From positions 72,402 through 136,401 of the forward strand of contig CAYNEO010000004.1 in assembly GCA_964396245.1 (NCBI GenBank): a stretch of DNA of 64,000 nt. The letters are read 5' to 3'. This document shows positions 7,369 to 64,000 of the stretch, piece by piece. Numbering within the stretch: position 1 is the first letter of the stretch; every line of letters starts with the position of its first letter. A model generated the notes under the pieces. The model did no database searches, was not told the DNA's origin, and was given only the letters and a program-made list of their open reading frames with translations. Origin of the DNA: an uncultured Ignavibacteriales bacterium. GTDB taxonomy: Bacteria > Zixibacteria > MSB-5A5 > GN15 > FEB-12. Both the position numbers and the translations under genes were made by a program.

Positions 7369-7458
7369 GTCCCAAAAGTGCGATTGATGCTAAAAAATTG
7401 GGCAGATTTGGCGAAAATGATAGTATAGCAACGAGTAATAGGATTGTATTCGAGCACT

Positions 7459-8711: not shown

Positions 8712-9777
8712 AGTGAGCACGATGTTTGATGACATGGCAAAGTCGCCGGCGGCCTGGCTTACCGGTAAAGGAAGTGACTCGCTGGTCGTGATTTCCAGCC
8801 GCGTTCGTGTGGCCAGAAATGTGGCCGGCTGCCTCTTTCCGCCCGCAGCCGATGTCGAAACCAAGAAGCGTATTGTCTCCTATTTCGACTCGGCCAGCAC
8901 CAAATCGAAACTGCTGTCTTCGGGAGACTACCACAAGGCGGCGGATATCGGTGACCTCGACCGCGATTTCCTCATCGAACGGCACCTGATTTCACCGGTC
9001 TTTCTGGACGGCGATCTCTCGAAAGCGCTGTTTATCGGCGCTGACGAGCGCGTGTCGATCATGATAAACGAGGAAGATCACCTGCGAATCCAGGCACTGG
9101 CGGCGGGATTGGACCCCCAGGGCGCCTATGAACTGGCCATGCAGTATGAATCCGAGGTCGGCAAGTATCTCGAATTCGATTACGATGCGGACTTTGGCTA
9201 TCTCACCGCGTGTCCCACCAACGTCGGCACCGGCATGCGAGCCTCGATTCTCATCCATCTGCCCGGTATGGTGCTGACCAAGGAAATCGATCGCATGATA
9301 TCGCGCATCACCCGCAGCGGCCTTATCGTGCGAGGATTCTACGGTGAAGGATCCGATGTGCTCGGCAACCTGTTCCAGATTTCGAATCAGAACACACTCG
9401 GGCTTGCCGAGGAAGAGATTGTCAACCAGATCACGCGTGTGGCCGAAGAAATCATCGAAAGCGAGGCGGCTGCGCGCCAGCGGCTTATCGATGAAGCCGG
9501 TGATATGATCGAGGACAAGATCTGGCGTTCATACGGAATTCTGAAACACGCCCGCGTGCTGACATCCGACGAGGTTATGAACCTGCTCTCGGCGGTGCGG
9601 CTCGGTCATGCGATGAAGATTATAGATTTTCTGGATATCTCACTGATCAATGAAATTCTGCTGTTGTCGCAACCGGCGCATCTGCAGAAATACTATGGAC
9701 AGGAAATGGACAACAACCGTCGTGACTTTGTCAGAGCCCAAATGGTACGGGAAAAGCTACGGAACAGTCAACAATGA
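8704..9777 (+). CDS. mcsB: protein arginine kinase McsB
   Basis: ATP:guanido phosphotransferase signatures NEEDHLRIQ and CPTNVGTGMRAS. ATG 8704 overlaps the mcsA stop (ATGAATAG). Confidence 0.88.
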   Translation: MNRVSTMFDDMAKSPAAWLTGKGSDSLVVISSRVRVARNVAGCLFPPAADVETKKRIVSYFDSASTKSKLLSSGDYHKAADIGDLDRDFLIERHLISPVFLDGDLSKALFIGADERVSIMINEEDHLRIQALAAGLDPQGAYELAMQYESEVGKYLEFDYDADFGYLTACPTNVGTGMRASILIHLPGMVLTKEIDRMISRITRSGLIVRGFYGEGSDVLGNLFQISNQNTLGLAEEEIVNQITRVAEEIIESEAAARQRLIDEAGDMIEDKIWRSYGILKHARVLTSDEVMNLLSAVRLGHAMKIIDFLDISLINEILLLSQPAHLQKYYGQEMDNNRRDFVRAQMVREKLRNSQQ

Positions 9778-9846
9778 ATAGTTGTTTTGAACTTGCAAGA
9801 CAGATAGAAGAGCGTTATTTCTATAGAGAAGGAAGGTACTAACAAT

Positions 9847-12315
<2,469 letters not shown>

Positions 12316-34148: not shown

Positions 34149-34151
34149 ATT

Positions 34152-36674
34152 TCACAAATCCATCGGATCAACTATTCCGCCCTCCGGTTCGAGCCGGTAC
34201 ATCGCCTTCCGGTGGAATGAAAGAGCCGGAATCGCGACTGTCAGTCCGTCCGTCAAGAACTCGGCAACTTCGGTTGGCCGGGCATAGCCGCCCTCACCGA
34301 GACCGAGCACCATCTCGAGCATCTCGCCCTCAATACGCATATCGTGAACGGCGGGACGAATATCGATTTCCTTCGTTTCATTCTTGGTCACCCTTTGGCA
34401 TTCGAGGTGCTCCTGTTCCAACAAGCCGCCGACCTGCTGCATCAGTCGATGAGGATCTTCCCACAAACGTATCGGCAACTGATACACGACCCGGTTCAAC
34501 AGCGATGACAGCGACTTATTCTTGCCAAGCACCGACCGCGCTTCCAACAAGTCTATGCCACCGGCCAGGGCGCGGCGCAGGCTGTCGAGCATGTGCGGCA
34601 TGAATCCGGTATCCAGGGTTATATCGACATATTCCGCTTCCGACGTAAACCCCAGCGGCAGCGGCGGACCGAACGACAGCTTCATGGTCGGGTTATACCC
34701 CTGGCTGTACGCCACCGGAAGCCGGGCCCGGCGGAGCGCCCGCTCGAGCATGCGGAGATTATCGAGATGCGACATGTACTTATATGTGGCCTGTTTGCCC
34801 CAGTGGACACGGAAACGATTCTTTGTCGGCGCGCTGACATTGCGCGAGGCCACCCGCTTTTTGCCTCGTCCGAACTCTCCCGGTGTGTCGGCAGCCGGCG
34901 ATTCCGCCTCGCGTGAGGGCCGCACGTACGCTTTCAGTTGTGTCGACGTTTTTTCTCTCTCGTTCTTCAGATGTTCCGTCGAGACGCCTTTCGCTATATG
35001 CGACCACGGCAGTTCCGCCGAAAACGGAATCGCCTCCAGTGCCTGAACCGGATCGATACCGTGTTCCTTGAATGAGTCCAGCCAGAGATCATAATTGAAA
35101 GTCTCGGTCCAGCCGTCAAAACGACAGCCCGTCCGGTAGGCCGTCTCGATGACACCGGCAATATTGCGGCCGCCGCGGCCGAGCACACAGGTGAGACTGG
35201 CCTGCTGCGTGTTGTTATACTTTATGTGAATCTGGTTATGGCGGAGCCGCCCCTTGAGGAACATGATACGACTGAAAAGTTCTTCCTCCGGAAGTGACTG
35301 ATCCCACTGGAATGGTGTGTGCGGCTTCGGCACGAACGGCGACAGCGTAATATTGATCGTTTTCTTTCCGGGGAAGTCACGACCGATCTGATGAATGCGT
35401 CGTGCGAGATCGACAATCCCCTGCAAATCCTCCTGTGTTTCGCTCGGCAGACCGATCATGAAATACAGCTTGATCGTCGTCCATCCCTTTTCGAACATCA
35501 TCCGGGCGGTGTCGAAAATGGCCTCGTCGGGAATGTCCTTCCGAAGAAACAGCCGCAGTCGCTCCGTACCCGCCTCGGGAGCTATCGTAATACCGTAGCG
35601 CCTGACACGCTTGACCGCATCGAGCAAAGCCGGGGTGATATTTCCCGGGCGAAGCGACGGCAACGCGATAGAAACGTGCAGCGGCTCCAGCCTTCGCGCC
35701 AGCGTACCGGCGAGGCTTTCAATTTCCGGGTAGTCCGACGTCGACAGCGACATCAACGAGACCTCTTCATAACCGGTGCGTGTAATCTGCGTTTCCGCCT
35801 GTCTCAGGACCGATTGTTTATCCCGTATGCGAACCGGACGGTAGATTGGTCCGGCCATGCAGAAGCGGCAGCCCTGCGGACATCCCCGCATTATTTCGAT
35901 CCCGAGATGCGAGTGAACCGTCTCGACCAACGGCACCAGCGGCTGTTCGGGGTAATATTCGTCCTTGAGTTCCCTGACAACACGAGCCTTGATCTTTTCC
36001 GGGGCGAAGTCAACAACCGGCCGACGGTTATCATCGTAGAAGGCAGGTATATAGACAGATTCGACCTGCCGGCAGAGGGCCTCGAGTTTGTCCTTTCGCG
36101 GGGCACTGCGCATCTCGTGCAGTATGCCCAGCATCTCCGGCAAACCTTCTTCAGCGTCCCCGATAAAAAACAGGTCAACGAACGGCGCTATCGGCTCCGG
36201 GTTATACACCGCCGGCCCGCCGGCCATGATGATCGGGTGTTCGTTAGTGCGGTCGGCTGAACGCAGCGGCAGTCCCGCCAGGTCGAGCATGGCGAGCATC
36301 GATGTGTAAACCGTCTCATTAACGAGACTGAATCCGATGACGTCGAAATTCCCGGCGGGACGGGCCGATTCCAGTGAGAACAAGGGGATCTTCTCCCGCC
36401 GCATGATCTCCTCGGCATCGGTGTCGACCGCAAACACCCGCTCGCAGAGAAAACGATCATCCTTGTTTATGAGATTGTAAAGGATCTGGAGTCCGACGTG
36501 GGATTGCCCGAGCTCGTACTTGTCCGGGTGGGCGTAGAGGAAATTCAGACGTCCGCGCGGGTCTTTGATAATCTGTCCCAGTTCGCCGCCGGCATACCGT
36601 CCCGGCTTTATGACGTACGGGAAGAACTTTTTCTCGAGCAGTTCTCTCATGTACAATAAGTGCTCCGCTTTCAA
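34152..36674 (-). CDS. B12-binding-domain radical SAM protein fused to a DUF2344 domain
   Basis: Radical SAM cluster motif CPQGCRFC. The C-terminal ~220 aa (YMSHLDNLRMLERALRRARLPVAYSQGYNP) match the DUF2344/TIGR03936 pattern. Confidence 0.8.
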   Translation of the reverse strand: MKAEHLLYMRELLEKKFFPYVIKPGRYAGGELGQIIKDPRGRLNFLYAHPDKYELGQSHVGLQILYNLINKDDRFLCERVFAVDTDAEEIMRREKIPLFSLESARPAGNFDVIGFSLVNETVYTSMLAMLDLAGLPLRSADRTNEHPIIMAGGPAVYNPEPIAPFVDLFFIGDAEEGLPEMLGILHEMRSAPRKDKLEALCRQVESVYIPAFYDDNRRPVVDFAPEKIKARVVRELKDEYYPEQPLVPLVETVHSHLGIEIMRGCPQGCRFCMAGPIYRPVRIRDKQSVLRQAETQITRTGYEEVSLMSLSTSDYPEIESLAGTLARRLEPLHVSIALPSLRPGNITPALLDAVKRVRRYGITIAPEAGTERLRLFLRKDIPDEAIFDTARMMFEKGWTTIKLYFMIGLPSETQEDLQGIVDLARRIHQIGRDFPGKKTINITLSPFVPKPHTPFQWDQSLPEEELFSRIMFLKGRLRHNQIHIKYNNTQQASLTCVLGRGGRNIAGVIETAYRTGCRFDGWTETFNYDLWLDSFKEHGIDPVQALEAIPFSAELPWSHIAKGVSTEHLKNEREKTSTQLKAYVRPSREAESPAADTPGEFGRGKKRVASRNVSAPTKNRFRVHWGKQATYKYMSHLDNLRMLERALRRARLPVAYSQGYNPTMKLSFGPPLPLGFTSEAEYVDITLDTGFMPHMLDSLRRALAGGIDLLEARSVLGKNKSLSSLLNRVVYQLPIRLWEDPHRLMQQVGGLLEQEHLECQRVTKNETKEIDIRPAVHDMRIEGEMLEMVLGLGEGGYARPTEVAEFLTDGLTVAIPALSFHRKAMYRLEPEGGIVDPMDL

Positions 36675-42857: not shown

Positions 42858-42971
42858 GTGGCTGAGTTCGAACTGGCGTGGGAACGAACGCATATGTCAC
42901 AAATCAGTTACCGCCGGGGTGGACTCCCCGGGAGCTGGAATCAAACAAACGCGGGCGCGAGGGATTCATGA
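42858..42971 (+). CDS. candidate 37-codon upstream ORF
   Basis: AAGGAGG (42846-42852) lies 5 nt before GTG 42858. It encodes MAEFELAWERTHMSQISYRRGGLPGSWNQTNAGARDS. Stop TGA 42969-42971 overlaps ATG 42968 of the large ORF (ATGA). Confidence 0.3.
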   Translation: MAEFELAWERTHMSQISYRRGGLPGSWNQTNAGARDS

Positions 42972-44083
42972 TTGACGGCTATCGCGAGGTTGCGCTGCTG
43001 TTATCCCGTCAGCCGCTTCGACCAAACGGCGATACACCCTGGGTACGGAACATAATCGACGCAGTGTCCTGGCTTAAAGGGGAGCGGGCTGCGATTTGCA
43101 GTTCGATCGGTCTTCAGACGTGGGAGATGATCACCACCGTCACGGTTGATGCCGGCTTGCCGCTTATCCTGTTTATCCCGGCAGAAAATGAAGCTCGCTA
43201 TTGGGCGGAATGCGTGCGCGCCATCCACGAGTTCGACCTGAACACCCGCGTGGTCACCTTCGTGCCGGTTCTTGCCCCGAAAGACCGTCATGCGGCCAGA
43301 GCAATCCTCGAGGCGCGCGACCGCGCTGTCATTTCACGCGCCGACCTGATTCTTCCCGTGTCGGTAAGAGAGCGCGGAAGTCTCCGACGGCTCATCGACG
43401 ATGCCGAATCAAACGGCAAGCAGATCATGGCTCGGTTCGAGACACCTCACACCGGACGTCACGACGCACTCTCATTCGAGATTGATCCCGGAGCTGTCAG
43501 GGAAGAGCTTCCCAAAGAGGCGGCTGAGTATATCATCCACTGGACCCGCTCGTGTAACACCGCCTGGCCCGGTGAACGGCTCATCGATTACTACCGGGCT
43601 ATCATCGATTCACCGACCTATCCGCGCTCGGCCTTTACAACCCTCAAACGAATCCTGGAGTCACGAAAAATCATCGCCTCGTCGCGACACATGCCGCGAA
43701 AAACAGCGACCGTTTCGTTCTCCGGTCTCTCACCAACGGAACTGATACCGTTGATCAAATGGCGGGCCAGGTATCGGGAGATGTCGTTTGAGCCTTACGG
43801 CGTGGGAATCAAACGCGAAGTTGCAGAGCGGCTCGGTATCAAACCGGTGCTGTATTACGAGCCCGACGACGCCGGCAGTGTTCCGTCGGCTGACCGATGG
43901 CGCTCGCAGTCGGTCGGACAGGTCACCGACTGGCGCCGTGAAGAAGAGTATCGCCACCTCGGCAATCTCGACCTGAGTCGGGTTCCGGACGATGCCCTCC
44001 TCGCTGTCTGCTACGCGGCAGGGGAAGCGAAACGATTACAGTCGGAAATTGGCGTTCGGACAATCTCCTTTATCCCCTCATGA
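42878..44083 (+). CDS. orphan protein: DprA/SLOG-like Rossmann N-domain fused to an AbiGi-like C-domain
   Basis: 401-aa ORF. The tracked GTG 42878 has no SD; ATG 42968 has GAGGG 4 nt upstream. Motifs: ICSSIGLQTWEM..DAGLPLILFIP, ARDRAVISRADLILPVSVRERGSL, IIHWTRS, TVSFSGLS, EPYGVGIKREVAERLGIKPVLYYE, REEEYRHLGNLDL. Confidence 0.6.
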   Translation: MGTNAYVTNQLPPGWTPRELESNKRGREGFMIDGYREVALLLSRQPLRPNGDTPWVRNIIDAVSWLKGERAAICSSIGLQTWEMITTVTVDAGLPLILFIPAENEARYWAECVRAIHEFDLNTRVVTFVPVLAPKDRHAARAILEARDRAVISRADLILPVSVRERGSLRRLIDDAESNGKQIMARFETPHTGRHDALSFEIDPGAVREELPKEAAEYIIHWTRSCNTAWPGERLIDYYRAIIDSPTYPRSAFTTLKRILESRKIIASSRHMPRKTATVSFSGLSPTELIPLIKWRARYREMSFEPYGVGIKREVAERLGIKPVLYYEPDDAGSVPSADRWRSQSVGQVTDWRREEEYRHLGNLDLSRVPDDALLAVCYAAGEAKRLQSEIGVRTISFIPS

Positions 44084-44157: not shown

Positions 44158-47115
44158 CTACTTCAACAGCAGCATTTTTTTCGATTCGCTGAACTTGTCT
44201 GTCGCCACCCGATAAAAATACACACCGGAGGAAAACGACGAAGCATCCCAGTCGACATCCACCCGACCGGCGCGACCCTGACCGGTGACCTCGTATACCT
44301 TTTGTCCGAGCACGTTGAAGATTGTGAGCGTGTACTCCGATGCTCGTGGCAAGTCAAACGAAATGACGGTCGACGGGTTGAACGGATTCGGGTAGTTCTG
44401 ATACAGTGCAAATGTCTTCGGCAGTACGTTCGCGTCCGGCGGTTCTTCGACAGGTGTCGGCGCCAGCGTGGCCCGCGCGGCTGCGTTGGCGATGTCAGCG
44501 TAGGTATCACCGGCCAAAAGCGCGAAGGTCACGGTCTGTTCCGCTCCCGGGGCGAGCACCATCGGCCCCGCCGCCATCACCTGGAACAGATCATATCTGG
44601 AGCTCTTGTACGTGTCCGCACTGGCAGTTCCATTCGACAATGAATTGTATTTCTCGGAAGTCGTGTAACCATTACCTGATGCACTCAGGTACTTGGCATA
44701 CACGATCAAATCGCTTCGTCCGGTTTGGGCTGTGTAGAACGGACCTTCGAGCAATTTCACGGCGCGATATTCGCTCAAAGAGGTGCCGTTATTATACGCC
44801 ATCCACGCAATCCCGTCGGCTGACTCATACCCGCCGGCGTCCGAAGCATAGTTGTAAATATCCCAATCGAGAAAGATGCCAAAATAGAAATTCGTGATGG
44901 TTACGCCGCTAGTATTCTGCAGAACGTATTGCAGTATGACAAAATCATCGTCGGGCGGGTCGTAAGTGTACGAATTCTGTTTCACCAGTATGTCGAAGGG
45001 GTCGGCGGCGTGGCTGTCGATAAACGCAGAGTATGTCTGCTGGGCCGCAATCGGACCGGGTACCTGCAAAACCAGATTGCCGCCGGGGGCGACGTTGAAA
45101 TCCATGTCCGGATCCCAGAAATAACTGTGCACGGCGCTCGACACCCGGAAAGCGCTGTTGCCCATCATGAGTCCCCCCTCGTACAGATCGTTACCGCCGC
45201 CATTGAAATCGAAACCCAGCCCACCGGCCGGAAACTGCGACCCGGGACCGAGACCCAGCCCGCCCCAGTTGGAGAGCGAGAACGCTAATCTTGACGTAAC
45301 GTGTGACGCTATCGTCTTGACCAATGGCGGAACTACCTGGAAACTCAGATGCAGGGTGTCGATGGCGGTTAACCCTGAGAAAATCACAAAATCGAGCCCA
45401 AGCAAAGATCCCGTGGACACGGTATCGGATACGACCACCCTGAGATTCTCGGGCGATTGAACGGTCGTGTTCCTCAGCAGACTGCCAAAGGTGGCTACGG
45501 CATCCAGCACGGTGAGTGAAGGATCGGAGTTAAGAAGCACACCTGTTACACCGCTGACTGTCGATCCAAGATTCTGAAGCGTGACCTGCCCCGTGACTGT
45601 ATCGCCCGGATGGATAGGGGCATGGTCGAAGGCGTATATCCGGATATTGGGCTTACCGGCGATAGTGGGGAGGGTATCCAATGCACCCATGCAATCAATT
45701 GCCCCCCAGCCGTAATGGTTGTTTGGCGCGAGCCAACTCGGATCCTTTTGGGCGCCGTTCAGGATCGCTGTCTTGATCTGGTCGACCGTGGCATTCGGGT
45801 TTTTCTGCCGCAGGAGCGCCACCAGACCGCTGACATGCGGCGCCGCCATGGAAGTACCGGAAAGAACGTTGTATGTGTCACCCGGCCAACTGGAATAGAT
45901 GCTGGTCCCCGGCGCCACGACATTTGGTTTGAAACTGGGGCCGACACAATCCGACGGGCCGTGTGACGACGAGCGATTGAGCGTAGCCGGAGTTACGGTC
46001 GTGTTCAGGTTCCCCACCGCAAAACTGGCAATCGAGTCGGTCGCCCGGTTCGCCGGATTAAAAACGATTGTGTCCGCGGGCTCATACCTGTTTCCCGCCG
46101 CAAAGATGTTTACGATCCCCAGCGCTTCGACGTTATCGATAACGTCAAAAAAGATATTTTCACACGCCGCCACGCTTTTCGACAATCCCCAGCTATGGTT
46201 GATCACGTCGGGGACATCGCTCACCGTGTTCGGATCACCGTCCGGGTCGGCCGCCCACTCGAAGCCGTCGATAATCGACGCCCCGGCGATATCTATCACC
46301 GCGGCTGAAATCCACTTGGCGCCGGGCGCGACACCGATCGTGTCACTGCTGGTGTGACCCACCAGGATTCCCATCACATGCGTGCCGTGGTTTGTAACAC
46401 ATCCCGCCGTCAAACCGCAATCAGGAATCGTGTGCGGAAACGACTGATGCTTAATCGGGTCGAACCATGCCGCCGCCGAATCACCGTCGAGCCCCTTCCA
46501 ACTACTGTACAACGCCGGGTGTGAACCCTGTATGCCGGTATCAAAAGAGCATATCACTCGTCCTGTTCCCGTATACCCGGCCGCCCATGCTTCCGGCGCG
46601 CGAATATACTTCAGATTTGAAGTTATCGAATCCGGAGCAAGAGCGCCGCCCGCGACCGACTTTTCTTCCACCGGTGCGATGAGGACAATTTCAGGCGGAA
46701 TGATTACGCGCTCGACATCACCACGAGCTGCCAGTGCCCGTAATTCGCCGGCGGCAACCTCGGCCTCGACAAGATTGGTAATCCAGTGCGATTTAATCCG
46801 CGTTGCCCGTCCCCGCGACTCCAACTGCTCGAGCGCGTTAATCAGTCCGCTCTGCGCATGGCTGTTTTCGTCCTTGAGCTGCTTTAGCGCCAATTCATGT
46901 CGGCCCCGGCGGGTATCCGACTGACTGAGCAGGGTCGCTTTGAATTTGGACGCCGACTCGGCCCGTGGAAGCGTGATCCACACGCGGATTTTCTCGTCCT
47001 GACGGCTGGAATTAATCTTGCGGGATAAATCTTCGCCAATCTCACCGGCGAACAGGGACGGTGCCAGGGTAAGCGCCAGTCCGGCGATAAGGGTGGTCAG
47101 ACGGGTTCGGTTCAT
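44158..47115 (-). CDS. S8 subtilisin-like serine protease with T9SS C-terminal sorting domain
   Basis: Signal peptide. Catalytic D (FDTGI), H (HGTHVMG) and S (GTSMAAPHVSG). C-terminus YQNYPNPFNPSTVISF...SGVYFYRVAT...KKMLLLK matches the Por_Secre_tail pattern. Confidence 0.88.
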   Translation of the reverse strand: MNRTRLTTLIAGLALTLAPSLFAGEIGEDLSRKINSSRQDEKIRVWITLPRAESASKFKATLLSQSDTRRGRHELALKQLKDENSHAQSGLINALEQLESRGRATRIKSHWITNLVEAEVAAGELRALAARGDVERVIIPPEIVLIAPVEEKSVAGGALAPDSITSNLKYIRAPEAWAAGYTGTGRVICSFDTGIQGSHPALYSSWKGLDGDSAAAWFDPIKHQSFPHTIPDCGLTAGCVTNHGTHVMGILVGHTSSDTIGVAPGAKWISAAVIDIAGASIIDGFEWAADPDGDPNTVSDVPDVINHSWGLSKSVAACENIFFDVIDNVEALGIVNIFAAGNRYEPADTIVFNPANRATDSIASFAVGNLNTTVTPATLNRSSSHGPSDCVGPSFKPNVVAPGTSIYSSWPGDTYNVLSGTSMAAPHVSGLVALLRQKNPNATVDQIKTAILNGAQKDPSWLAPNNHYGWGAIDCMGALDTLPTIAGKPNIRIYAFDHAPIHPGDTVTGQVTLQNLGSTVSGVTGVLLNSDPSLTVLDAVATFGSLLRNTTVQSPENLRVVVSDTVSTGSLLGLDFVIFSGLTAIDTLHLSFQVVPPLVKTIASHVTSRLAFSLSNWGGLGLGPGSQFPAGGLGFDFNGGGNDLYEGGLMMGNSAFRVSSAVHSYFWDPDMDFNVAPGGNLVLQVPGPIAAQQTYSAFIDSHAADPFDILVKQNSYTYDPPDDDFVILQYVLQNTSGVTITNFYFGIFLDWDIYNYASDAGGYESADGIAWMAYNNGTSLSEYRAVKLLEGPFYTAQTGRSDLIVYAKYLSASGNGYTTSEKYNSLSNGTASADTYKSSRYDLFQVMAAGPMVLAPGAEQTVTFALLAGDTYADIANAAARATLAPTPVEEPPDANVLPKTFALYQNYPNPFNPSTVISFDLPRASEYTLTIFNVLGQKVYEVTGQGRAGRVDVDWDASSFSSGVYFYRVATDKFSESKKMLLLK

Positions 47116-49094: not shown

Positions 49095-50546
49095 CTACAA
49101 ACCGGGCTTGTCGAGTGATTGTTCCGCCGCGCTGCTGTCAGCAACTTTCCGGGAAAAGAGCAGGTACCGGACATCGTATGCCGCGAAGCTGGTATCACGG
49201 GCATACTTGGCAAGGAATAGTGAGTCATTCACAAAGCCGGAGATTGGACTTGTCGCCGATGCCACCACCCATGACGGCTGAAAGTCGGTGATAACCTGAA
49301 GGTATTTTCCGGCACGGTTATACGGGATGACCTCCGGCGATATCAGGCCGTCACGATCGAGAATACGCCGCCGCGAGTAATACCCGATATAACCGATATC
49401 CTCGGCGGCCACCAGTTGATTTTCCGAGGCTTCAGCATTCAGGTAGATGCCGATCTGGCGATGTACATCGAGGAGGATCTGTTCCTGCTTCCGATAGTGA
49501 GTGACCGGCACATAATCCGCCGCGAGTAACACCAGAATCACTAAACCGTACAATGCCGGTTTGATAATGTTCAGGCGGGTGACGAGCGGTCCATAACGCT
49601 CTATCAAAAACGGTGCGGCGGCCGTGGCAAAAAGCAGATACATGGGATAAATCGGAACGATGTACCAGAAGAAGAGCATGGTCCGGCTGAACATGTAAAA
49701 GAGAACGGTCCCAACAAACCAGATGACTACCGGCCAGCAGAAATTCTGCTTGCGGTTGAGCCACCAGCCCCCGATGACGGCGCTGACAAACAGAATCCAT
49801 CCGAACACCGAATGCCAGGCCATCATGAACCTCAGTGCCTGCCAGGGAGTCGGCCGTCCAAACTGGCTGTAGAGAGCCAGCTTGGCGGTAACGCTGTTAG
49901 GAACGACAGAGCCAAAATACCACTCGGCGAATATCACCCACGGGACGAGAAGAATCGCCGGCACCAGTACATATGAGAACCACCTGTCAGGCCGTTTATA
50001 CCAGTTGTAGACGAGAAGCAATCCCAGCAGCCACAATCCCTCCGGCCTGGTCAGGGTTGCCAGTGTCGCCATACCAATGGCATAGATTTCGAGCCGCTTG
50101 TGTTGATAGTAAAACGCCGACGTCACCAGCAGCGTAAAGAACGCCGTTTCCATGCCGCTGATATCAGCGGTCAGCGAGCGGGGAAACAGAATATACGCCA
50201 TCACCGGCAGCCATGATGCCCATCGGAAACGCAATAACTGGGCGAAACGGTACAGCACCATCGCGGTCAGCCCCGAAAAGACGGCCGAGATAAACAGCGA
50301 TGCTTTCACCGCGGTCATGCCAAGAGCGGCAAATGATGCCAGGATGAGTGTGAACAGGGGTGTCGATGTTCCGAGGACATGCTCCCCGATATTGTAAACA
50401 AAGCCGTAGCCCTGTGCGATATTCTCGGCGTAGCGAAAGGTGATGAAAGCGTCATCGGTCGTGAAACCGGTCAGTTGATAAAAGACAATCCGCGCCAGTA
50501 CGGTCAGGAGAAAAATCAGGATCAGGTTACGCTTGGTCGATGGCAC
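49095..50546 (-). CDS. polytopic membrane glycosyltransferase (GT-C fold-like)
   Basis: More than 10 TM segments. First-loop acidic motif TTDDAFITFRYAENIAQGYGFVYN. Adjacent to the sugar epimerase gene. Confidence 0.55.
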   Translation of the reverse strand: MPSTKRNLILIFLLTVLARIVFYQLTGFTTDDAFITFRYAENIAQGYGFVYNIGEHVLGTSTPLFTLILASFAALGMTAVKASLFISAVFSGLTAMVLYRFAQLLRFRWASWLPVMAYILFPRSLTADISGMETAFFTLLVTSAFYYQHKRLEIYAIGMATLATLTRPEGLWLLGLLLVYNWYKRPDRWFSYVLVPAILLVPWVIFAEWYFGSVVPNSVTAKLALYSQFGRPTPWQALRFMMAWHSVFGWILFVSAVIGGWWLNRKQNFCWPVVIWFVGTVLFYMFSRTMLFFWYIVPIYPMYLLFATAAAPFLIERYGPLVTRLNIIKPALYGLVILVLLAADYVPVTHYRKQEQILLDVHRQIGIYLNAEASENQLVAAEDIGYIGYYSRRRILDRDGLISPEVIPYNRAGKYLQVITDFQPSWVVASATSPISGFVNDSLFLAKYARDTSFAAYDVRYLLFSRKVADSSAAEQSLDKPGL

Positions 50547-54149: not shown

Positions 54150-54698
54150 ATGAGAACTCTACTGTGGGCGAGATTAGTAATCCTGGCCGGAATCATTGCT
54201 GTTATCGGAATACGGTGCGATCAGGCCGAAGCACCCGGAATTTCCGCCGCGCCGCCGCTGGCCGACACGCTGTTGACCGTATTCAGCGATATGAGCTCGG
54301 CCCTCAGGGCCAACGAGCCGGACAGCTTTTTCGCGCTCATACACCCCGATGATGCCAAGAGCCTTCAGGAGCTGTCCGCAAGACACGGCTACAGTTCGCT
54401 CAAGGTCTACTTGCAGTCGCAGTTGCACGGGTGGCCGGACCTCGACACGCTGTGGTACGGTGATATAAGGGCGAACGGCATGTACGCGCGCCTGACCATG
54501 ATCGGCCCCGGCACCAGGATCGGGCAGGACCGGGAACGCCGACGATATACCTTCCTATTGTTCAAGCGCGATGGTGACCGCTGGAAACTCTCGGCCATGT
54601 CAACGCTCGAAAAGGAGCGCTACGACCCGTACGGTTACAAAGTGACTTACCACGAAACGGATCTCCCGCCAAAGCTTCGATTTCCCCGCCAGTTCTGA
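54150..54698 (+). CDS. hypothetical secreted protein (NTF2-like?)
   Basis: N-terminal signal/TM. FLLFKRDGDRWKL segment. Inserted between eno and ftsB. Confidence 0.45.
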   Translation: MRTLLWARLVILAGIIAVIGIRCDQAEAPGISAAPPLADTLLTVFSDMSSALRANEPDSFFALIHPDDAKSLQELSARHGYSSLKVYLQSQLHGWPDLDTLWYGDIRANGMYARLTMIGPGTRIGQDRERRRYTFLLFKRDGDRWKLSAMSTLEKERYDPYGYKVTYHETDLPPKLRFPRQF

Positions 54699-55963: not shown

Positions 55964-57301
55964 ATGAGCGCGAAGAACAAAGAAGACTTGATGGATAAAC
56001 TGGTATCGTTGTGTAAACGGCGGGGTTTTGTGTTCCCGTCCTCGGAAATCTACGGAGGTCTCGGTTCCACTTGGGATTACGGCCCGCTCGGCGCGGAATT
56101 GAAACGGAACCTCAAAACCTTCTGGTGGGATGCCATGACCAACCGCCGCGACGATATCGAGGGTCTCGATGCCGCTATCCTCATGCACCCGCAGGTCTGG
56201 CACACCTCCGGCCATGTCAGCGAGTTCACCGACCCGCTGGTTGACTGCAAGACCTGCAAAGGACGCTTCCGAGCCGATAAGCTCGAGGAATGTCGATGTT
56301 TGCTCAAGCCTTCGAAAACCCCGCTCGAATGCGGCGGCGAGCTCACCGATGCCCGGAAATTCAATCTGATGTTCAAGACGTTTATGGGTCCCGTAGAAGA
56401 CGACTCGAATATTATCTACATTCGCCCCGAGACGGCCCAGGGCATTTATGTTAACTTCCTGAATGTCAAGAATTCATCGCGCCAGAAAATCCCTTTTGGC
56501 ATCGCCCAGATCGGCAAAGCCTTCCGAAATGAAATCACTCCCGGCAATTTCATTTTTCGGACCCGCGAGTTTGAGCAGATGGAGATGCAGTATTTCATTC
56601 ATCCCAGTGAGGATGAAAAGTGGTTCGAGTACTGGCGAGAGCAGCGGTGGGAGTGGTATCTGACCCTCGGGCTCCGCGAAGAGAAACTCCGCTGGCATAA
56701 ACATGAAAAAGATGAATTGGCCCACTACGCCAAGGCAGCTTACGATATCGAATATGAATTTCCCTTTGGGTGGCAGGAACTTGAGGGTGTTCACAACCGC
56801 TATGATTTCGACCTCAGCCGACATATGGAAGCGACCAAAAAAGACATGCGGTACACCGATGAACGCTTCACTGAAAAGTTTATTCCATATATCATAGAGA
56901 CTTCCGCCGGCTGCGACCGCACTCTGCTCACGCTCCTGGTCGACGGTTACGATGAAATGGAGGTCAAGGGGGAGAAGCGCGTATTCCTCAGGCTGTCGCC
57001 GAAGATCGCCCCGATCAAGGCGGCCGTCTTCCCGCTGGTCAAAAAGGAAGGCATGCCGGAGTTCGCAACCAGAGTGTACGAAGAGCTCAAAAAGCGATTC
57101 AAGGTGTTTTACGATGAGTCCGGCGCGGTGGGACGGCGTTATGCCCGGATGGACGAAGCCGGCTGCCCGTACTGTATCACTATCGATGGTCAGACGCTGG
57201 AAGACGAGACGATGACTGTCAGGGAGCGTGATACCATGGATCAGACTCGCATGAAGATTGGCGAGATCATCGACTTTCTCGATTCAAAAACACGGATTTA
57301 A
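55964..57301 (+). CDS. glyQS: glycine--tRNA ligase (dimeric GlyQS type)
   Basis: RRGFVFPSSEIYGGLGSTWDYGPLG, FRNEITPGNFIFRTREFEQME. Confidence 0.95.
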   Translation: MSAKNKEDLMDKLVSLCKRRGFVFPSSEIYGGLGSTWDYGPLGAELKRNLKTFWWDAMTNRRDDIEGLDAAILMHPQVWHTSGHVSEFTDPLVDCKTCKGRFRADKLEECRCLLKPSKTPLECGGELTDARKFNLMFKTFMGPVEDDSNIIYIRPETAQGIYVNFLNVKNSSRQKIPFGIAQIGKAFRNEITPGNFIFRTREFEQMEMQYFIHPSEDEKWFEYWREQRWEWYLTLGLREEKLRWHKHEKDELAHYAKAAYDIEYEFPFGWQELEGVHNRYDFDLSRHMEATKKDMRYTDERFTEKFIPYIIETSAGCDRTLLTLLVDGYDEMEVKGEKRVFLRLSPKIAPIKAAVFPLVKKEGMPEFATRVYEELKKRFKVFYDESGAVGRRYARMDEAGCPYCITIDGQTLEDETMTVRERDTMDQTRMKIGEIIDFLDSKTRI

Positions 57302-57379
57302 AGCGTAAGCCCCTGTAGGTCAAATACAAAGGTCCGCGTGTCCGACGGACACGTCATTCAGGACCGAGGCAAGCTGCTT

Positions 57380-57637
57380 TCAAATGCTCCAGATATGCCG
57401 TTCGAGTGCGTGCGCGATGTCCTGGATCGTCGGGTACATCTTGGGATTCTTTTCTCTGGGACGCCTCCGCTGGTCCCTGAGCGCCTGACCATTGATAATA
57501 ACCGTCGGTGATTTCACCGGCTGGTCAGACTCAATAATCTTCGCCAGAATACCCCGTTCCCGAACGAATCGCTTGACGAAATCACTTGCTTCGGTCTGAA
57601 CGGGATCCTTCCTCGAATATATCAGACCGATTTCCAT
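57380..57637 (-). CDS. hypothetical small protein
   Basis: 85-aa ORF starting at ATG 57637 (MEIGLIYSRKD...). No family recognised and no Cys residues. Confidence 0.35.
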   Translation of the reverse strand: MEIGLIYSRKDPVQTEASDFVKRFVRERGILAKIIESDQPVKSPTVIINGQALRDQRRRPREKNPKMYPTIQDIAHALERHIWSI

Positions 57638-57710
57638 ATCCACCCCGTTCCATTTTACTTGCAAGTTCTGTCAAAGCAGTAGACCAGTCAACAACAATGT
57701 ATATTCCTCT

Positions 57711-57751
57711 AACGTTTCTCGCAAAAGAAACGTTTCAAAGTTTTCGCGAAA
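57711..57751. promoter_or_regulatory. two adjacent palindromes upstream of sodB
   Basis: AACGTTTCT-N6-AGAAACGTT (57711-57734) and TTTCGCGAAA (57742-57751). Confidence 0.35.
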
Positions 57752-58011
57752 TGTGACCGCGCCGTTAGAAATTCATGAGAAAGCTGGACCCACGAGTCGC
57801 TTTTTCTGTTATATCAGGCAAGCAACCCTGGTCAGGTCTCCGCGAACCGTCGCACCAGCGGAAAACTCCGGTGATTGAATGTTATTGTCGGGCAGTAATA
57901 AACCGGCCCTCGTGTGGACCGGGCGATCCGGATTCCACCGATTACAATGCGAATTTGGATAAAGATCTTTTCATAAGTAGCCGCAGTACGATACGTAAAG
58001 GAGGAAAAAAA

Positions 58012-58590
58012 ATGGCATTTGAATTACCAAGCCTGCCGTACGCCAAAGATGCCCTGGCGCCGCATATCTCCCAGGAAACGCTGGAATACCACCACGGCAA
58101 GCACCATCAGGCGTATGTAAACAAGATCAACGATCTTGTTAAGGGCACGGAGTTTGAAAAGGCCTCACTTGAGGACATTATCAAGAAAGCTGAAGGCGGC
58201 ACATTCAATAACGGCGCCCAGGTGTGGAATCACACTTTCTACTGGAATTGCCTGAGCCCCAAGGGAGGCGGTGAACCGTCGGGCGCCCTCGCCGACGCCA
58301 TCAACAAAGCGTTCGGCTCCTTTGACAAGTTCAAAGAGAAATTTACCGCCACCGCGGCCGGCACTTTCGGGTCAGGATGGGCCTGGCTCGTCAAAAACTC
58401 CGACGGTTCTCTGGAGATTGTCAGCAAGAGCAACGCCAACAACCCGATACGGGACGGGAAAACGCCGATACTGACTTGCGATGTCTGGGAGCACGCTTAC
58501 TACATCGATTACCGCAACGCCCGCCCGAAATATATCGAGGCCTTCTGGAATCTCGTGAACTGGGATTTCGCCGCCAAGAATTTCGGCTAG
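58012..58590 (+). CDS. sodB: Fe/Mn superoxide dismutase
   Basis: [40 protein letters not shown] upstream of ATG 58012. The tracked ORF 57775.. carries a spurious N-terminal extension. Confidence 0.95.
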
Positions 58591-58630
58591 AGCTGTTCAA
58601 ATTCACAAAAGTGTGGCAGTTGAGAGTCAG

Positions 58631-58661
58631 CCGGGCCGATTGCGAAATGCAATCGGCCCGG
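58631..58661 (+). terminator. hairpin terminator after sodB
   Basis: CCGGGCCGATTGC-gaaat-GCAATCGGCCCGG. The U-tract is weak (TATGTTT). Confidence 0.6.
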
Positions 58662-58707
58662 TATGTTTATGCTATAGTCTAAGATAAGGATTAACGGCGG
58701 ATATGGT

Positions 58708-59763
58708 TCAGGCCAGTGTGACCCAGATGTCGGAAAACGGCTCGACCTTGCCGATGGACTCGTGGGGGAGACCATGCTTCTTCAATTCGCTCGCAAACTC
58801 GGTCGCCTGAGATTCTGGAATCGCGATAAAGAGACCCCCCGAAGTCTGCGGGTCGAAGGCGACGATATTAATTCTCCGGTCAACCGCGTCATCGACAAGG
58901 GCTTTGCCCTCCAGGAACTCCCGGTTGTCATTCGCCCCGCCCGGAATCATGCCGGCTTCCGCCATCTCGAGCGCTTCCGGCAGCAGCGGCAGCCTATCCG
59001 CAAATAGCCGGATAGTCGCGTTCGATGCCGTGGCCATCTCGTAAGCGTGTCCCAGCAGGCCGTATCCCGTGATATCAGTCGCCGCATGCACGTCGTATTG
59101 CAGCATCAATTCACAGGCAGCCCGGTTCAGCTGGGCCATCTGCTTTATGACAACGTCTGTCAATTCGGCACTCGCCTTATTGCGCTTGATACCGGTCGTA
59201 ATCAACCCGGTCCCCAGACGCTTCGTAAGAAACAGGACATCACCCGGTTTCGCACCCGAATTGAGAATAATCCGGTTTGGGTCGATCAAGCCGGTAGCGG
59301 CAATCCCGTATTTGAGCTCGGTATCCTTGATCGAATGCCCGCCGACCACTATTGCCCCGGCCTCCTCGACTTTCTCTTTTCCCCCGCGCAGAATATCGCC
59401 CAGTATCTCCGCCGGCAGGGTACCCTTCGGGAAGGCGACAATGTTCAGGGCGGTGATCGGTCGTCCGCCCATCGCAAAAATGTCCGACAGGGCGTTCGCC
59501 GCCGCTATCTGCCCGAAAAAGTACGGATCATCGACAATTGGCGGGAAAAAATCCACCGTCTGCACGAGAGCCAGATTCTCGGAGATCCGAAATACCCCGG
59601 CGTCATCGGCAGTATTGTAGCCGACCAGCAAGTCCGGGTGAGTTGTCTGCGGCACGGTGGCCAGCACTTCCGCCAAAAACTTTGGCGCCAGCTTAGAGGC
59701 TCAACCCGCACACGTGACCTGGGCGGTCAGCTTGATCAAGTTTTCTTTTCGTTTGTCGTCCAT
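58708..59763 (-). CDS. selD: selenide, water dikinase SelD, selenocysteine-containing (in-frame UGA at 59703..59701)
   Basis: The tracked ORF starts at 59676, but the frame continues upstream through a single TGA to ATG 59763: MDDKRKENLIKLTAQVTCAG-U-ASKLAPKFLAEVLATV... The U-x-x-K spacing matches the SelD catalytic Cys/Sec-Lys loop. Confidence 0.8.
59668..59703 (-). promoter_or_regulatory. UGA codon plus candidate bacterial SECIS hairpin
   Basis: 13 nt after the UGA: CGCCAAA-guu-UUUGGCG, a 7-bp stem. Confidence 0.45.
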
Positions 59764-60171
59764 ACAGGTTCCTAAGATACCACCCTGCCTCTCCAAGAGC
59801 AACCATTCTCAGACGGCGCCGGTTACCGGCTGGGATGTCGATTAAAACAGCCTCTGCCGGAGGATGTTCAAAAAACGAACAGAAATTAGCCCGCCGAACC
59901 GCTACAAACTATTCCGTTTCTTCCGATTAAATACACAAGGGTCCGCCCGAAAAGACGGATTCCAGAGGTATGGAACGATATTTCGCCACCATGGGAAACA
60001 GACGGGCTGATAACAGATACTCAAAGGGCAGGCGAGGTCCATCCGGCCATGACGTTCCATACATTTCCAATGCGTGGTCGCCTCCGGTGATCCCGAGCCG
60101 GCGGTGGGCACTATTGCAGATGGTTGCGGATTAAAAAACGGCATCTTGCGTGACAGGTTTGAGAGGGTCAA

Positions 60172-62316
60172 ATGGGTGACAAGAATGCGGGTCTCCGGCT
60201 GGATGAAATTCTGGTCTGGGAAGGGCTGGTAACCGAAGATCAGATCAAGGAAGTACTGGCCCGCCAGAAGGAAGAGGGCGGCCGGATAGGATCCCATCTC
60301 CTGCGCCAGGGTTTTATCGATGAACCCGGGCTTGTCAAAGCGCTCGCCAAGCAGTTCAACTGCGACGGCGTCGTGCTGAGCGATCTCGAAATACCGGAAA
60401 TCATCATCAAGTTCATCCCGCAGCGAATCGCGTTCGCACGCCGGGTTCTCCCGTTCGACTATGATCCTGAAACAAATGTCCTGAAAGTCGCATGCGAGGA
60501 TCCGCGCGACAAGCATCTCGCCGACGAGCTGAAATTCATCGTCCGGGGCAAAAAGCTCAAGCTGTTTGTGGCCGCCGAACTGTCACTAACCGCCGCGATT
60601 GAAAAATACTACGGCGAAACCGACCAGGTTGACCCGGAAGAGGTCGAAGCGGCCGACGATGTCGACAACGAACACGAGGCCAACCATCCCACATGGGGTA
60701 TCTCCGCCAACCAGGGATCGCGTGAACGCATCTTGCTCGTGACCGATGACGAAGACGGGGGCGAAACAATTCGCACCATCCTGGAACAGCAAAACTATGA
60801 AGTTACCGTCACGGATTCGGCCGATGATGCTATCGACATTATCGACGGTATCCAGTTCTCGACCGTGTTTATCAAGGACACTGTTCCGGGCGATTACATC
60901 GACCTGATCGACCGGCTTCGCAAAACCTCGCCGCGCACCCGCGTCCGTTATTACGAACACGCCGCGAGACTGCTCGTGGAAGACGAATCATCAGCCACCG
61001 CCCATGAACTGCTGATTAAAAATCTCGACCTGTTTACCTCGATGCTCGTCTCGCGCGATAAACTCCGGATCAACCACAGCGCTATTGTCGGCCAGTATGT
61101 CGACCGGCTCTGCCGGCGTATCGGTCTGCCCGACAAGGACCGGATGATCATCACGAGCGCGGCGTACCTGCATGACCTGGCGCGATTCTATTACAGCGGT
61201 TCCGAGGTGCCGAATAACCCGCGGAGCGAAGTCGAGATGAACGCCCGCCTGCTCGACTCATTGAATTTCTCGCCGCTGGTGGTCGCCGTGGTGAACTCGA
61301 TGTACATCAATCTTCGCAAGAAGTACACGAAACGTCTGCCGATAGAGGTCCTCGGGGGCAACATCATTACGATGGTCGACATCTTCTGCGAAACCGTGCC
61401 CGGCGACGAGCCGATTTCCGTCGACAAGTTCGAACTGATCAAGGAAAAACTCCACGACATGACCGGCCGTTTGTTCTTAAGCGAAGTTGTCGAAGCGTTC
61501 ATTGCGATGATTCAGGAAGAAATGCTGACCGAATCGCCGGACGGCAAATTCGGGCAGGTAATGATCTATTCTCCCGAGTCCGATCAACTGGCGTCCGTCG
61601 AACAGCGACTTAAGAACGAAGGATTCAGATCGGTTGCCCACCTCGCTATCGAACCGTTCATGGGCATGTTTCGTCGCGGACAGCCGGATATGATGATCCT
61701 GATGCAGGACGGCAGTGCCGACGCCGTCAATAAATTCGTCGACCAGTTAATAGACCAGGGCGTTGACTTCCATGCCGTGCCGACGTTCGTTCTTCTCGAG
61801 GGAGAGGTTGCCTCCGAATCGACATCGCTTCTCGAAAAGGGCATCGAAGATGTCATCCCGCTCAGCGACAATCTCGGCCTCCTGATCGTGAAAATGAAAA
61901 AGATTCGCTCCCGGATCGAAGCCGAGGCCGCCAGCCGCCAGAAACTCGAAGTCGAATCCGGTTCCTACGGCAACCTCCAGAACATGAATCTTATCGATCT
62001 GCTCCAGGCGCTTGGACCAAGCCGAAAAACCGTGAAAATCGATATCGCCGGACCCGACGGTCATTTTATACTCTACCTCGACCGGGGTGAGATACGCAAC
62101 GCAGTTTACGGTGAGAAGTCCGGCGCGGAGGCCGTCTACGAGGCAATGACATGGTCCAAAGGCAGCTGGCGAATCGAACCCGTAACTGACCGCAAGCTGC
62201 CGGAGCCGAACAACGACCAGTCAAATGAGTCTATCCTGATGGAAGGCTGCCGCCTGCTCGATGAACGTCTGCGAAGTCAGGCCGACGCCAATACCGAGCG
62301 GATCCATCACGTTTAA
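60172..62316 (+). CDS. multidomain signalling protein: MshEN (T2SSE_N) - REC-like - degenerate HD-GYP-like - REC-like - DUF4388/PATAN
   Basis: Tandem 24-aa MshEN motifs at aa 9-32 and 38-61. ILLVTDDEDG...VFIKD is a receiver-like fold. NHSAIVGQYVDRLCRRIGL...AAYLHDLARF is HD-like without HHE/GYP. The C-terminus has GNLQNMNLIDLLQAL...GEIRNAVYG, a DUF4388 pattern. Confidence 0.75.
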   Translation: MGDKNAGLRLDEILVWEGLVTEDQIKEVLARQKEEGGRIGSHLLRQGFIDEPGLVKALAKQFNCDGVVLSDLEIPEIIIKFIPQRIAFARRVLPFDYDPETNVLKVACEDPRDKHLADELKFIVRGKKLKLFVAAELSLTAAIEKYYGETDQVDPEEVEAADDVDNEHEANHPTWGISANQGSRERILLVTDDEDGGETIRTILEQQNYEVTVTDSADDAIDIIDGIQFSTVFIKDTVPGDYIDLIDRLRKTSPRTRVRYYEHAARLLVEDESSATAHELLIKNLDLFTSMLVSRDKLRINHSAIVGQYVDRLCRRIGLPDKDRMIITSAAYLHDLARFYYSGSEVPNNPRSEVEMNARLLDSLNFSPLVVAVVNSMYINLRKKYTKRLPIEVLGGNIITMVDIFCETVPGDEPISVDKFELIKEKLHDMTGRLFLSEVVEAFIAMIQEEMLTESPDGKFGQVMIYSPESDQLASVEQRLKNEGFRSVAHLAIEPFMGMFRRGQPDMMILMQDGSADAVNKFVDQLIDQGVDFHAVPTFVLLEGEVASESTSLLEKGIEDVIPLSDNLGLLIVKMKKIRSRIEAEAASRQKLEVESGSYGNLQNMNLIDLLQALGPSRKTVKIDIAGPDGHFILYLDRGEIRNAVYGEKSGAEAVYEAMTWSKGSWRIEPVTDRKLPEPNNDQSNESILMEGCRLLDERLRSQADANTERIHHV

Positions 62317-62492
62317 TACCTGAAGTTCTCGTTTCTTCCAGTCCGGGTTGATCGTCCGACCCGGAAACGCTTTCCACTTTATGTTGTTGTAGATATGACG
62401 GCGGTGTGAAATATGCGGCCGTTTCTCTTCTCGACGATTCACCTGATGATTACATGTTATTCATTGAATAGAAAGCTGCAAGGAGCAATGCA

Positions 62493-63275
62493 ATGATTAC
62501 GAGAACTGTTGTCTTCGCCGGGCTGTTCATCGGGAGTATCCTTATCCTCGCCGGCTGCAGCCCCCAGCAAGACGAGCTGCACGGCGCCGCCGGCCGAATC
62601 GCCCAGGCGTACGGTATCAATAGATTCACCGATCTGGGTGAAATACGGTTTACCTACAACGATTCGACTGCCGCCGAGACAACCCACCGGCACTGGAACT
62701 GGGAGCCGGAAACCGACCGCGTGGTCTATACGGGAATCGGCCCCGACGGCGACTCGATAAAATACGAGTACTTTCGCAACCAGATGAAAACCGGCGACAC
62801 CACGCTGAACAAGACCCTCGACAAATGGTTTGTCAATGACCAGTACTGGCTGTTCTTCCCCTTTCACCTGGCGTGGGACAACCATATCAAAATAAAAGAA
62901 GACAGCATCACTCCGCTTCCGATTCCCCCGGGGGAATCCCGCTCCTTTACGGTCACATATACCAAGGACGCTGAGCACATGCCCGGAGCCGTGATCCAGG
63001 TGTTCTACACGCCCGAGTACGCCATCACCCAGTGGATATTTCGCAAGGGTGGTGTCGGTGGAACCGCGCGTGTGACCACGTGGGAAGATTACGTTCGCCT
63101 CGGGCCGGTCACGCTCGCGCTTGATCACGAAGGCAAGGACGGCGAATACCGCCAGTGGTTTACCGATGTCGCTGCGAAATACCAGGGCGGCGGTGAGTGG
63201 TTTGAACCGACCAGAATATCACCGCAGACATCCGTGTTCGGCTACAGCGAGAGCGAAAATAACTTGCATCATTAG
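62493..63275 (+). CDS. hypothetical lipoprotein
   Basis: Lipobox ILAGC after the signal peptide. SD AAGGAG. No family recognised. Confidence 0.6.
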   Translation: MITRTVVFAGLFIGSILILAGCSPQQDELHGAAGRIAQAYGINRFTDLGEIRFTYNDSTAAETTHRHWNWEPETDRVVYTGIGPDGDSIKYEYFRNQMKTGDTTLNKTLDKWFVNDQYWLFFPFHLAWDNHIKIKEDSITPLPIPPGESRSFTVTYTKDAEHMPGAVIQVFYTPEYAITQWIFRKGGVGGTARVTTWEDYVRLGPVTLALDHEGKDGEYRQWFTDVAAKYQGGGEWFEPTRISPQTSVFGYSESENNLHH

Positions 63276-63299: not shown

Positions 63300-63668
63300 G
63301 CGACAGGGAGAGCACCCCACAGCGCAGCAGAATAACAACGGGCTAATATCCAGACACGCGTCTGTGCACTCGAAAGGGCGATAACGGATCCACGCGTAAC
63401 CCTATCGCGGGCGTATGCCCGGACGTAACGCGTGGCGAGCGATCGATAGCACGGAAAATCTCCCGGCCGGTGAGCCACGGCATTGGTGCACCGGCGGGTG
63501 ATACGGGTGGGTTGTGTGCATTCGGCTGACTGTTCGTGATCTGGAGATAGCGGCAATCGGCGGGATGCGCCTTCCCCCAATAATCGCCGCTTTGGATGGC
63601 GGCGGAATGTGATGCCTCTTTTCTACTTTTCGCCAACCCCGCGGTATCCAGACCGCGGGGCTTTTTTT
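63300..63668 (+). ncRNA. candidate structured RNA or long structured 3' region (unclassified)
   Basis: No credible ORF. Nested GC-rich hairpins (CCACGCGT..CGGGC-gtat-GCCCG..ACGCGTGG; CCCGGCCGGTG/CACCGGCGGG; CGCCGC/GCGGCG). Ends in a strong terminator. Confidence 0.25.
63637..63668 (+). terminator. intrinsic terminator
   Basis: CCCCGCGGT-atccag-ACCGCGGGG followed by CT7. Confidence 0.85.
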
Positions 63669-63808
63669 CTTGCGATTTGCCCCGCTGGAACCTAATCTGT
63701 CAAAACCACATTAATACTTATTGTTGGAAAGCGACGGATCATCTGATTATGAAGTTCGTCGTAAACATACGTACATTCTGTAACCGAATAGTGAGATTGT
63801 TGAGAGAC

Positions 63809-64000
63809 ATGGCAGACGCGAAACGCAACAACGGAAAACTCATCGAAGTACGCCCGTCGGGCATCGCCGGAACCGGCGTCTATGCCGCGAAGCGAATCAG
63901 AAAGGGGCGGCGGATCATTGAATATGTCGGCGAACGTATCGGTCCCGACGAAGAATTGAAACGCTATCCCGAAACGGGCAAGAAACATCACCACACTTTT
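63809..64000 (+). CDS. SET domain protein (3'-truncated by window edge)
   Basis: ATG 63809: MADAKRNNGKLIEVRPSGIAGTGVYAAKRIRKGRRIIEYVGERI... shows the typical bacterial SET N-terminal pattern. Absent from the ORF track because it has no stop within the window. Confidence 0.7.
   Translation, partial: MADAKRNNGKLIEVRPSGIAGTGVYAAKRIRKGRRIIEYVGERIGPDEELKRYPETGKKHHHTF

Follow-up and report, generated by a model that had tools for sequence, protein, structure and literature searches.

The selD gene on the minus strand of the window (the whole stretch of DNA analysed, 64,000 nucleotides) very probably encodes a selenocysteine (Sec)-containing selenophosphate synthetase, as judged from its sequence, with Sec21 specified by the UGA at 59703..59701 and a downstream hairpin acting as the SECIS. 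Translation of the frame that opens at ATG 59763 gave 351 codons with one internal TGA. From ATG 59763..59761 we read 20 sense codons (MDDKRKENLIKLTAQVTCAG) up to the TGA at 59703..59701, followed by 330 codons, which begin with ASKLAPKFLAEVLATV and continue for 314 residues more, to the stop codon TGA at 58710..58708. The mechanical ORF call for selD covered only 58708..59676 and took as its start a TTG which corresponds to Leu30 in the full frame. An earlier, sequence-only reading had claimed that this automatic call omits the catalytic N-terminal loop and that the frame from ATG 59763 contains a single TGA; its coordinates were all correct on the minus strand, and the omission of the loop was confirmed by the extension of the frame to ATG 59763 and by a profile match in that region. 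The features that define the gene are the following:

58708..59763, minus strand: full-length selD coding sequence, 351 codons including the predicted Sec21, plus the stop codon TGA at 58710..58708 (translation, TIGR00476 and phmmer match to 3u0o)
59770..59773, minus strand: AGGA, located 6 nt ahead of the ATG, possible Shine-Dalgarno sequence (sequence read; identical in L085 and L086)
59761..59763, minus strand: ATG start codon of selD, the same start being found in the homologues L001–L005, L090–L093 and L135 (MDDRRKE, MEDKRKE, etc.)
59710..59712, minus strand: TGT codon of Cys18, three residues before the predicted Sec in the C-A-G-U motif (translation)
59701..59703, minus strand: in-frame UGA, predicted selenocysteine codon, residue 21 (alignment to E. 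coli Cys17 and Aquifex Sec13; conservation in relatives)
59692..59694, minus strand: AAG codon of Lys24, three codons after the TGA, counterpart of the catalytic E. coli Lys20 (alignment)

Directly upstream of the ATG of these homologues we found unconserved sequence or stop codons, and the AGGA at 59770..59773 may act as the Shine-Dalgarno sequence of selD in the window.

Membership in the SelD family (selenide, water dikinase; TIGR00476; Pfam AIRS + AIRS_C) was evaluated with the 351-residue product, in which the stop was replaced by Cys before the profile search. The product scored 382.9 bits against TIGR00476, the selD equivalog (cut-off 125), residues 11–319 matching profile positions 1–310 of 311, and 336.7 bits against NF002098 (cut-off 299); the ten residues upstream of the TGA matched the very start of the TIGR00476 profile. 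Among solved structures, the best match by phmmer was E. coli SelD (3u0o, E = 2.3e-67, residues 6–342), and Aquifex aeolicus SelD (2yye/2zod) matched residues 8 to 322 (E = 2e-61, 211 bits). Residues D54, D71, N90, D94 and D230 of the window protein aligned with D51, D68, N87, D91 and D227 of E. coli SelD, which structural work has established as conserved ATP- and metal-binding Asp/Asn residues, and all five were invariant in an alignment of 26 homologues. At the N terminus, C-A-G-U21-A-S-K24 aligned with G-A-G-C17-G-C-K20 of E. coli and S-S-G-C13-A-A-K of Aquifex; the Cys of the Aquifex motif SSG-C-AAK (2YYE/2ZOD) is Sec13 in the natural protein. The proposal that the TGA keeps the Cys17/Lys20 spacing of the E. 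coli enzyme was thus upheld by the structure alignment, with U21 falling on Cys17 and K24 on Lys20. The motif G-[U/C]-x-x-K, with its K invariant, was present in 80 of 80 SelD loci from reference genomes.

If the gene caller were right, translation would start at TTG 59676 and yield a functional 322-residue SelD without the N-terminal loop, the 29 codons upstream being an untranslated leader. This start is what automatic callers report, and among the best 120 protein clusters of a large public collection 117 are ~315–330 aa long and cover 85–93% of the query, all 117 being cut at the same place as the ORF call of the window. NCBI gives one of these shortened clusters, P0024 (327 aa), the name 'selenide, water dikinase SelD'. 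However, the product of such a start would be without the Sec/Cys and the Lys that are the counterparts of E. coli Cys17 and Lys20, both of which were reportedly found to be essential when Kim, Veres and Stadtman mutagenized E. coli SelD in 1992–93. Moreover, the 20 codons ahead of the TGA show protein-level conservation across phyla as well as a match to TIGR00476 positions 1–10, and the Cys-type relatives are full length with the same N terminus. The TTG itself is the conserved Leu of an L-x-x-x-L motif, lies within the 3' arm of the hairpin and has no Shine-Dalgarno-like sequence ahead of it. We therefore consider initiation at TTG 59676 extremely unlikely.

The codon equivalent to E. coli Cys17 was then compared in a reference set obtained by scanning one genome per species, which gave 80 SelD loci from many phyla. 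TGA was present at this position in 61 of the 80 loci and TGT or TGC in the other 19, and the peptide before the TGA was conserved as K/R-L-T-x-x-V-x-x-x-G-* (the asterisk standing for the TGA); KLTAEVSCAG*ASKLGP is an example from Zixibacteria, Calditrichaeota and Ignavibacteriaceae genomes. Among the best 120 clusters, the only full-length ones were P0086, P0095 and P0108, which are of the Cys type (351 aa, 60–62% identity) and read LTAEVSCAG-C-AAKLA where the window reads LTAQVTCAG-UGA-ASKLA. Alignment against Sec- and Cys-type SelD sequences, which the sequence-only reading had proposed as a check, thus placed the TGA on the catalytic position, where the Cys-type homologues carry Cys. A second set, derived from metagenomes, comprised at least 80 loci, of which 29 were scorable for the motif, and serves as a small replicate only; TGA was found in 20 of those 29, and six close relatives were among the matches listed. 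Two independent metagenome assemblies, L085 (99% protein identity) and L086 (94%), which represent the same or a sister population as the window organism, carried an identical TGA and hairpin.

These data bear on the reading of the TGA as a nonsense mutation or as a sequencing or assembly error, in which case selD would be a pseudogene or would originally be of the Cys type, with TGC or TGT misread. A TGA is indeed one base from TGT or TGC; nevertheless, the same TGA occurs in L085 and L086, which are assemblies from other samples, and in most of the scorable loci of both sets, the rest of selD is intact with all catalytic residues conserved, and the codon is followed by a structured element that only TGA-type genes have. 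Since both the TGA and the hairpin are identical in L085 and L086, sequencing error and pseudogene are ruled out, and we assign this explanation a probability close to nil. The neighbourhood of the codon also varied among lineages: CAG* or CSG*, that is, a CxxU arrangement of Cys18 and Sec21, was conserved in Zixibacteria, Calditrichaeota, Ignavibacteriaceae and Chloroflexi-type loci, Bacilli-type selD genes had U-G-C, like C17-G-C19 of E. coli, and many deltaproteobacterial selD genes had neither Cys.

The true stops of 38 Pfam-supported genes of the window were TGA in 18, TAG in 12 and TAA in 8, and selD itself ends in TGA. Reassignment of UGA (genetic codes 4 or 25) was ruled out, TGA being the commonest genuine stop in the window. 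As UGA is a normal stop in this organism, the internal UGA needs a local signal in order to be read, and the hairpin that follows it is the candidate:

59671..59687, minus strand: putative bSECIS upper stem-loop with a 7-bp stem CGCCAAA/UUUGGCG and the loop GUU (folding, covariation and absence from Cys-type genes)
59664..59692, minus strand: putative extended SECIS, made up of a lower 3-bp helix GCU/AGU, a 2x2 internal loop and the upper stem-loop (MFE fold)

The arms are CGCCAAA (59687–59681) and UUUGGCG (59677–59671), joined by GUU (59680–59678), and the hairpin begins 13 nt after the A of the UGA, spanning 13–29 nt downstream. The 29-nt element at 59692..59664 folded as (((..(((((((...)))))))..))) with −11.2 kcal/mol (z = −1.95), while the folding of a wider 71-nt stretch was not unusual (z = −0.23). 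As a single sequence, the hairpin is thus modestly unusual in its thermodynamics, and its significance lies in the comparative evidence. The extended elements of L001, L003 and L005 folded into the same architecture as that of the window. The bSECIS model describes an apical loop of 3–9 nt with a G within its first two positions, usually as G[G/U], an upper stem of 4–16 bp, a distance of 16–37 nt from UGA to loop and an MFE of −7.5 kcal/mol or lower (PMC13188914, Fig. 2 legend). The window's loop GUU is 3 nt long (G, then U), its upper stem has 7 bp, the apical loop lies 20 nt from the UGA and the MFE is that given above, each value falling within the published range. A search of Rfam over the whole window at the gathering threshold, and over 57200–60300 with E up to 1, gave no match; Rfam is without a bacterial SECIS family, so this result speaks neither for nor against the hairpin.

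To evaluate the conservation of the hairpin, pairing and covariation were scored in aligned relatives. In the 14 closest sequences, picked solely by a protein identity of at least 56% to the window, 95.9% of the cells were paired in register as compared with 58–60% when slid by one column, a comparison in which the tested structure derives from the window sequence, itself aligned, which favours the window register over the slid controls. Two-sided changes (14 cells) were seen in four of the seven pairs, and the covariation score of 0.457, obtained from hairpin sequences that are related to one another, compares with 0.191 in shuffles (0 of 500 reached it). In close relatives the loop was either GUU or GGU. 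In several of the compensations, one arm carried a synonymous change (Leu TTG/CTG, Ala GCG/GCC) and the other an amino acid change (Lys/Gly, Ala/Gly), a pattern that goes beyond what protein constraint alone would give. Because it is also translated, the hairpin owes some of its conservation to the conserved peptide L-G/A-P-x-x-L. When all 62 TGA-type sequences were considered, 75.3% of the cells were paired as compared with 53–54% after sliding (ungapped alignment A2, with the 3' arm slid by one column), and the covariation score was 0.286 against 0.181 in shuffles, again with 0 of 500 reaching it.

In contrast, the same columns of the 19 Cys-type genes were 50.4% paired and presented no covariation. 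The mean folding energy of the region from +11 to +40 was −10.3 kcal/mol in TGA-type and −6.5 kcal/mol in Cys-type genes of similar G+C (Mann–Whitney p = 1e-4). The closest Cys-type relatives, L087–L089, folded with only −5.0 to −6.6 kcal/mol, and 5, 5 and 1 of the 7 positions, respectively, were pairable in register, none of them in the predicted fold. In agreement with this, the metagenome-derived set (29 scorable loci) gave the same contrast between TGA-type and Cys-type genes. The suggestion that CGCCAAA-guu-UUUGGCG could be the SECIS therefore stood: the hairpin fits the published bSECIS criteria, covaries in relatives and is absent from Cys-type genes.

The register of the window's hairpin was not kept in some TGA-type selD genes of Firmicutes (L022, L028, L041, L052, L066, L070, L073 and L074), which had a strong hairpin further 3', at +29 to +45 after the UGA, for example GACGCAGGUACUGCGUC; this suggests that there are at least two SECIS placements within the SelD selenoprotein family.

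A different possibility is that the UGA is read without Sec, by a near-cognate tRNA(Trp) or tRNA(Cys) or by Cys-tRNA(Sec), in which case the enzyme would carry Cys or Trp; a working Sec pathway might be absent from the organism, or this might be a route for selenium scarcity. Such read-through would suit the absence of Sec machinery from the window, in which ARAGORN found no tRNA gene, tRNA-Sec included, over the whole 64 kb, and Pfam found no SelA, SelB, YbbB or YqeB/C domain among the scanned ORFs. It would also avoid the bootstrapping problem of a Sec-dependent SelD, an enzyme needed for its own synthesis. Nevertheless, purifying and compensatory selection on the hairpin is confined to TGA-type genes, which is sensible only if a SelB-type factor reads it, and tRNA-Sec adjoins selD in TGA-type relatives, so that we regard insertion of an amino acid other than Sec as very unlikely. 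A tRNA-Sec gene (anticodon TCA) was located at most 6 kb from a TGA-type selD in four unrelated lineages:

L014, 5723–5819: tRNA-Sec beside TGA-type selD
L034, 2611–2709: tRNA-Sec beside TGA-type selD
L041, 12919–13014: tRNA-Sec beside TGA-type selD
L043, 968–1064: tRNA-Sec beside TGA-type selD

In L014 (Vicinamibacterales), the tRNA-Sec lies upstream, with ~180 nt between its end and the start of the selD match. For the window organism, it is reasonable to infer, from the established knowledge of Sec decoding, that the genome contains selA, selB and selC outside the window, along with further selenoprotein genes that are mis-called, as had been anticipated from the sequence. Within the window, a search for a second selenoprotein gene gave hundreds of chance TGA-split segment pairs, in none of which the TGA interrupted a Pfam domain. 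An 840-aa radical-SAM/DUF2344 ORF and a 456-aa RsmB ORF (32778–36674, minus strand) lie in one frame, separated by TGA 34154..34152 and one codon; the pair was rejected as a recoding candidate, both domain sets being complete.

Around selD, the window contains housekeeping genes only. The nearest ones encode an Fe/Mn superoxide dismutase (SOD), glycyl-tRNA synthetase (GlyRS), RecO, DivIC and enolase, and on the other side, divergent from selD, lies the gene for a 714-aa protein with MshEN, receiver-like and DUF4388 domains. Two features adjoin the 3' end of selD:

57775–58590, plus strand: Fe/Mn SOD ORF, convergent with selD, probable true start Met80 at 58012
58630..58662, no strand assigned: 15-bp GC-rich hairpin between the convergent SOD and selD genes (terminator scan and sequence)

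In the listed SOD ORF, the first 79 residues are an extension without homology, and in 57302–58011 (~710 nt after GlyRS) no Pfam match was found in the small ORFs and no Rfam match. The hairpin at 58630..58662 is probably a bidirectional terminator for SOD and selD. The Zixibacteria locus L001 carried two SOD copies beside selD (6446–7060 and 7218–7796), the Cys-type loci L087–L089 had SOD 33–96 nt downstream of selD on the same strand (L087, 5637–6260; L089, 1664–2287), and no SOD was found beside selD in L002–L005. The adjacency of SOD and selD may be either a functional link or lineage-specific synteny.

L001 and L003 shared the gene order of the window, namely the DUF4388/MshEN protein, selD, (SOD), GlyRS and RecO, with identities to the window of 82–83% for GlyRS, 39–51% for the DUF4388 protein and 57% for RecO. 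Judging from this synteny, the window organism is close to Zixibacteria metagenome-assembled genomes; as no reference genome exceeded 66% SelD identity, it falls outside the species representatives. A subtilase of 985 aa (44158–47115, minus strand), which carries a C-terminal sorting domain for type IX secretion, agrees with the Zixibacteria placement, and together with a PorZ-like propeller protein (38788–40263, minus strand) it fits an FCB-group organism. Elsewhere in the window, a cluster at 8163–12315 (plus strand) resembled McsA (a UVR-motif protein), McsB (an ATP:guanido phosphotransferase) and ClpC, which form a protein-arginine phosphorylation and degradation module. No Pfam family was found in the sizeable ORFs at 49095–50546 (minus), 54150–54698 (plus), 42878–44083 (plus) and 62457–63275; those at 49095–50546 and 54150–54698 are probably real proteins and were also called as genes on the independent contigs L081–L084. 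Exact matches to the enolase of the window were found only on short metagenome contigs, of at most 10.8 kb. An open frame at 63584–64000 (plus strand) runs off the end of the window and weakly matched the SET domain, with a score (18 bits, E = 0.0039) under the gathering threshold of 22.4.

For the synthesis of the predicted Sec-containing SelD, when the ribosome arrives at the UGA the hairpin would be bound by a SelB carrying Sec-tRNA(Sec), which would deliver Sec to 59703..59701 in competition with release factor 2. In the resulting enzyme, Sec21 and Lys24 would be placed on a flexible N-terminal loop and handle selenium during selenophosphate synthesis, and together with the conserved ATP- and metal-binding Asp/Asn residues would be expected to form selenophosphate from selenide and ATP. 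The synthesis of SelD would then depend on SelD's own product. A more specific proposal is that SelD is the main or only selenoprotein of the lineage, the Sec trait being kept for it, and that CxxU and the recurrent adjacency of SOD (window, L001, L087–L089) may stem from a redox-protected hand-off of selenium. If true, superoxide from selenide autoxidation would be removed locally; we consider this proposal unlikely.

Among prokaryotic selenoprotein families, Sec-type SelD has been described as the second most widespread (PMC13188914, PMC1794560), and selD of the window is an ordinary case of this well-described kind, with nothing new biologically. Its practical value is an annotation fix, the catalytic loop being absent from the automatic ORF call and likewise from 117 of the 120 nearest clusters. 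In addition, the UGA read as Sec marks this uncultured relative of Zixibacteria, a name that does not occur in a 2026 review, as a probable Sec-decoder, which makes the rest of its genome worth screening for other split selenoprotein genes.

Among the closest known systems are the Sec-type SelD proteins of L001–L005, from Zixibacteria, Calditrichaeota and Ignavibacteriaceae metagenome-assembled genomes, which have 56–66% identity to the window protein and share with it the TGA, CAG-U-ASK and the hairpin register, while their stem sequences differ by compensatory changes. Aquifex aeolicus SelD, with its natural Sec13 (crystallised as the Cys variant in PDB 2ZOD/2YYE), is likewise a bacterial Sec-type enzyme, in which S-S-G-[U]-A-A-K aligns with C-A-G-U-A-S-K; its sequence is, however, clearly diverged, and it lacks the Cys three residues before Sec. 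E. coli SelD (3U0O) likewise has an N-terminal loop rich in Gly and binds metal and ATP through the same Asp/Asn residues, but it uses Cys (GAGCGCK) and no recoding, whereas the window has a UGA and a putative SECIS, and its additional Cys is found at −3 and not at +2. Finally, when compared through the general bacterial SECIS model (PMC13188914), the SECIS of E. coli fdhF, the one defined by experiment, lies immediately 3' of the UGA within the coding region, like the hairpin of the window, and presents G-U in a small apical loop at a distance of ~20 nt, although the stem sequences are unrelated and the predicted upper stem of the window is without a bulged U and has a loop of 3 nt.
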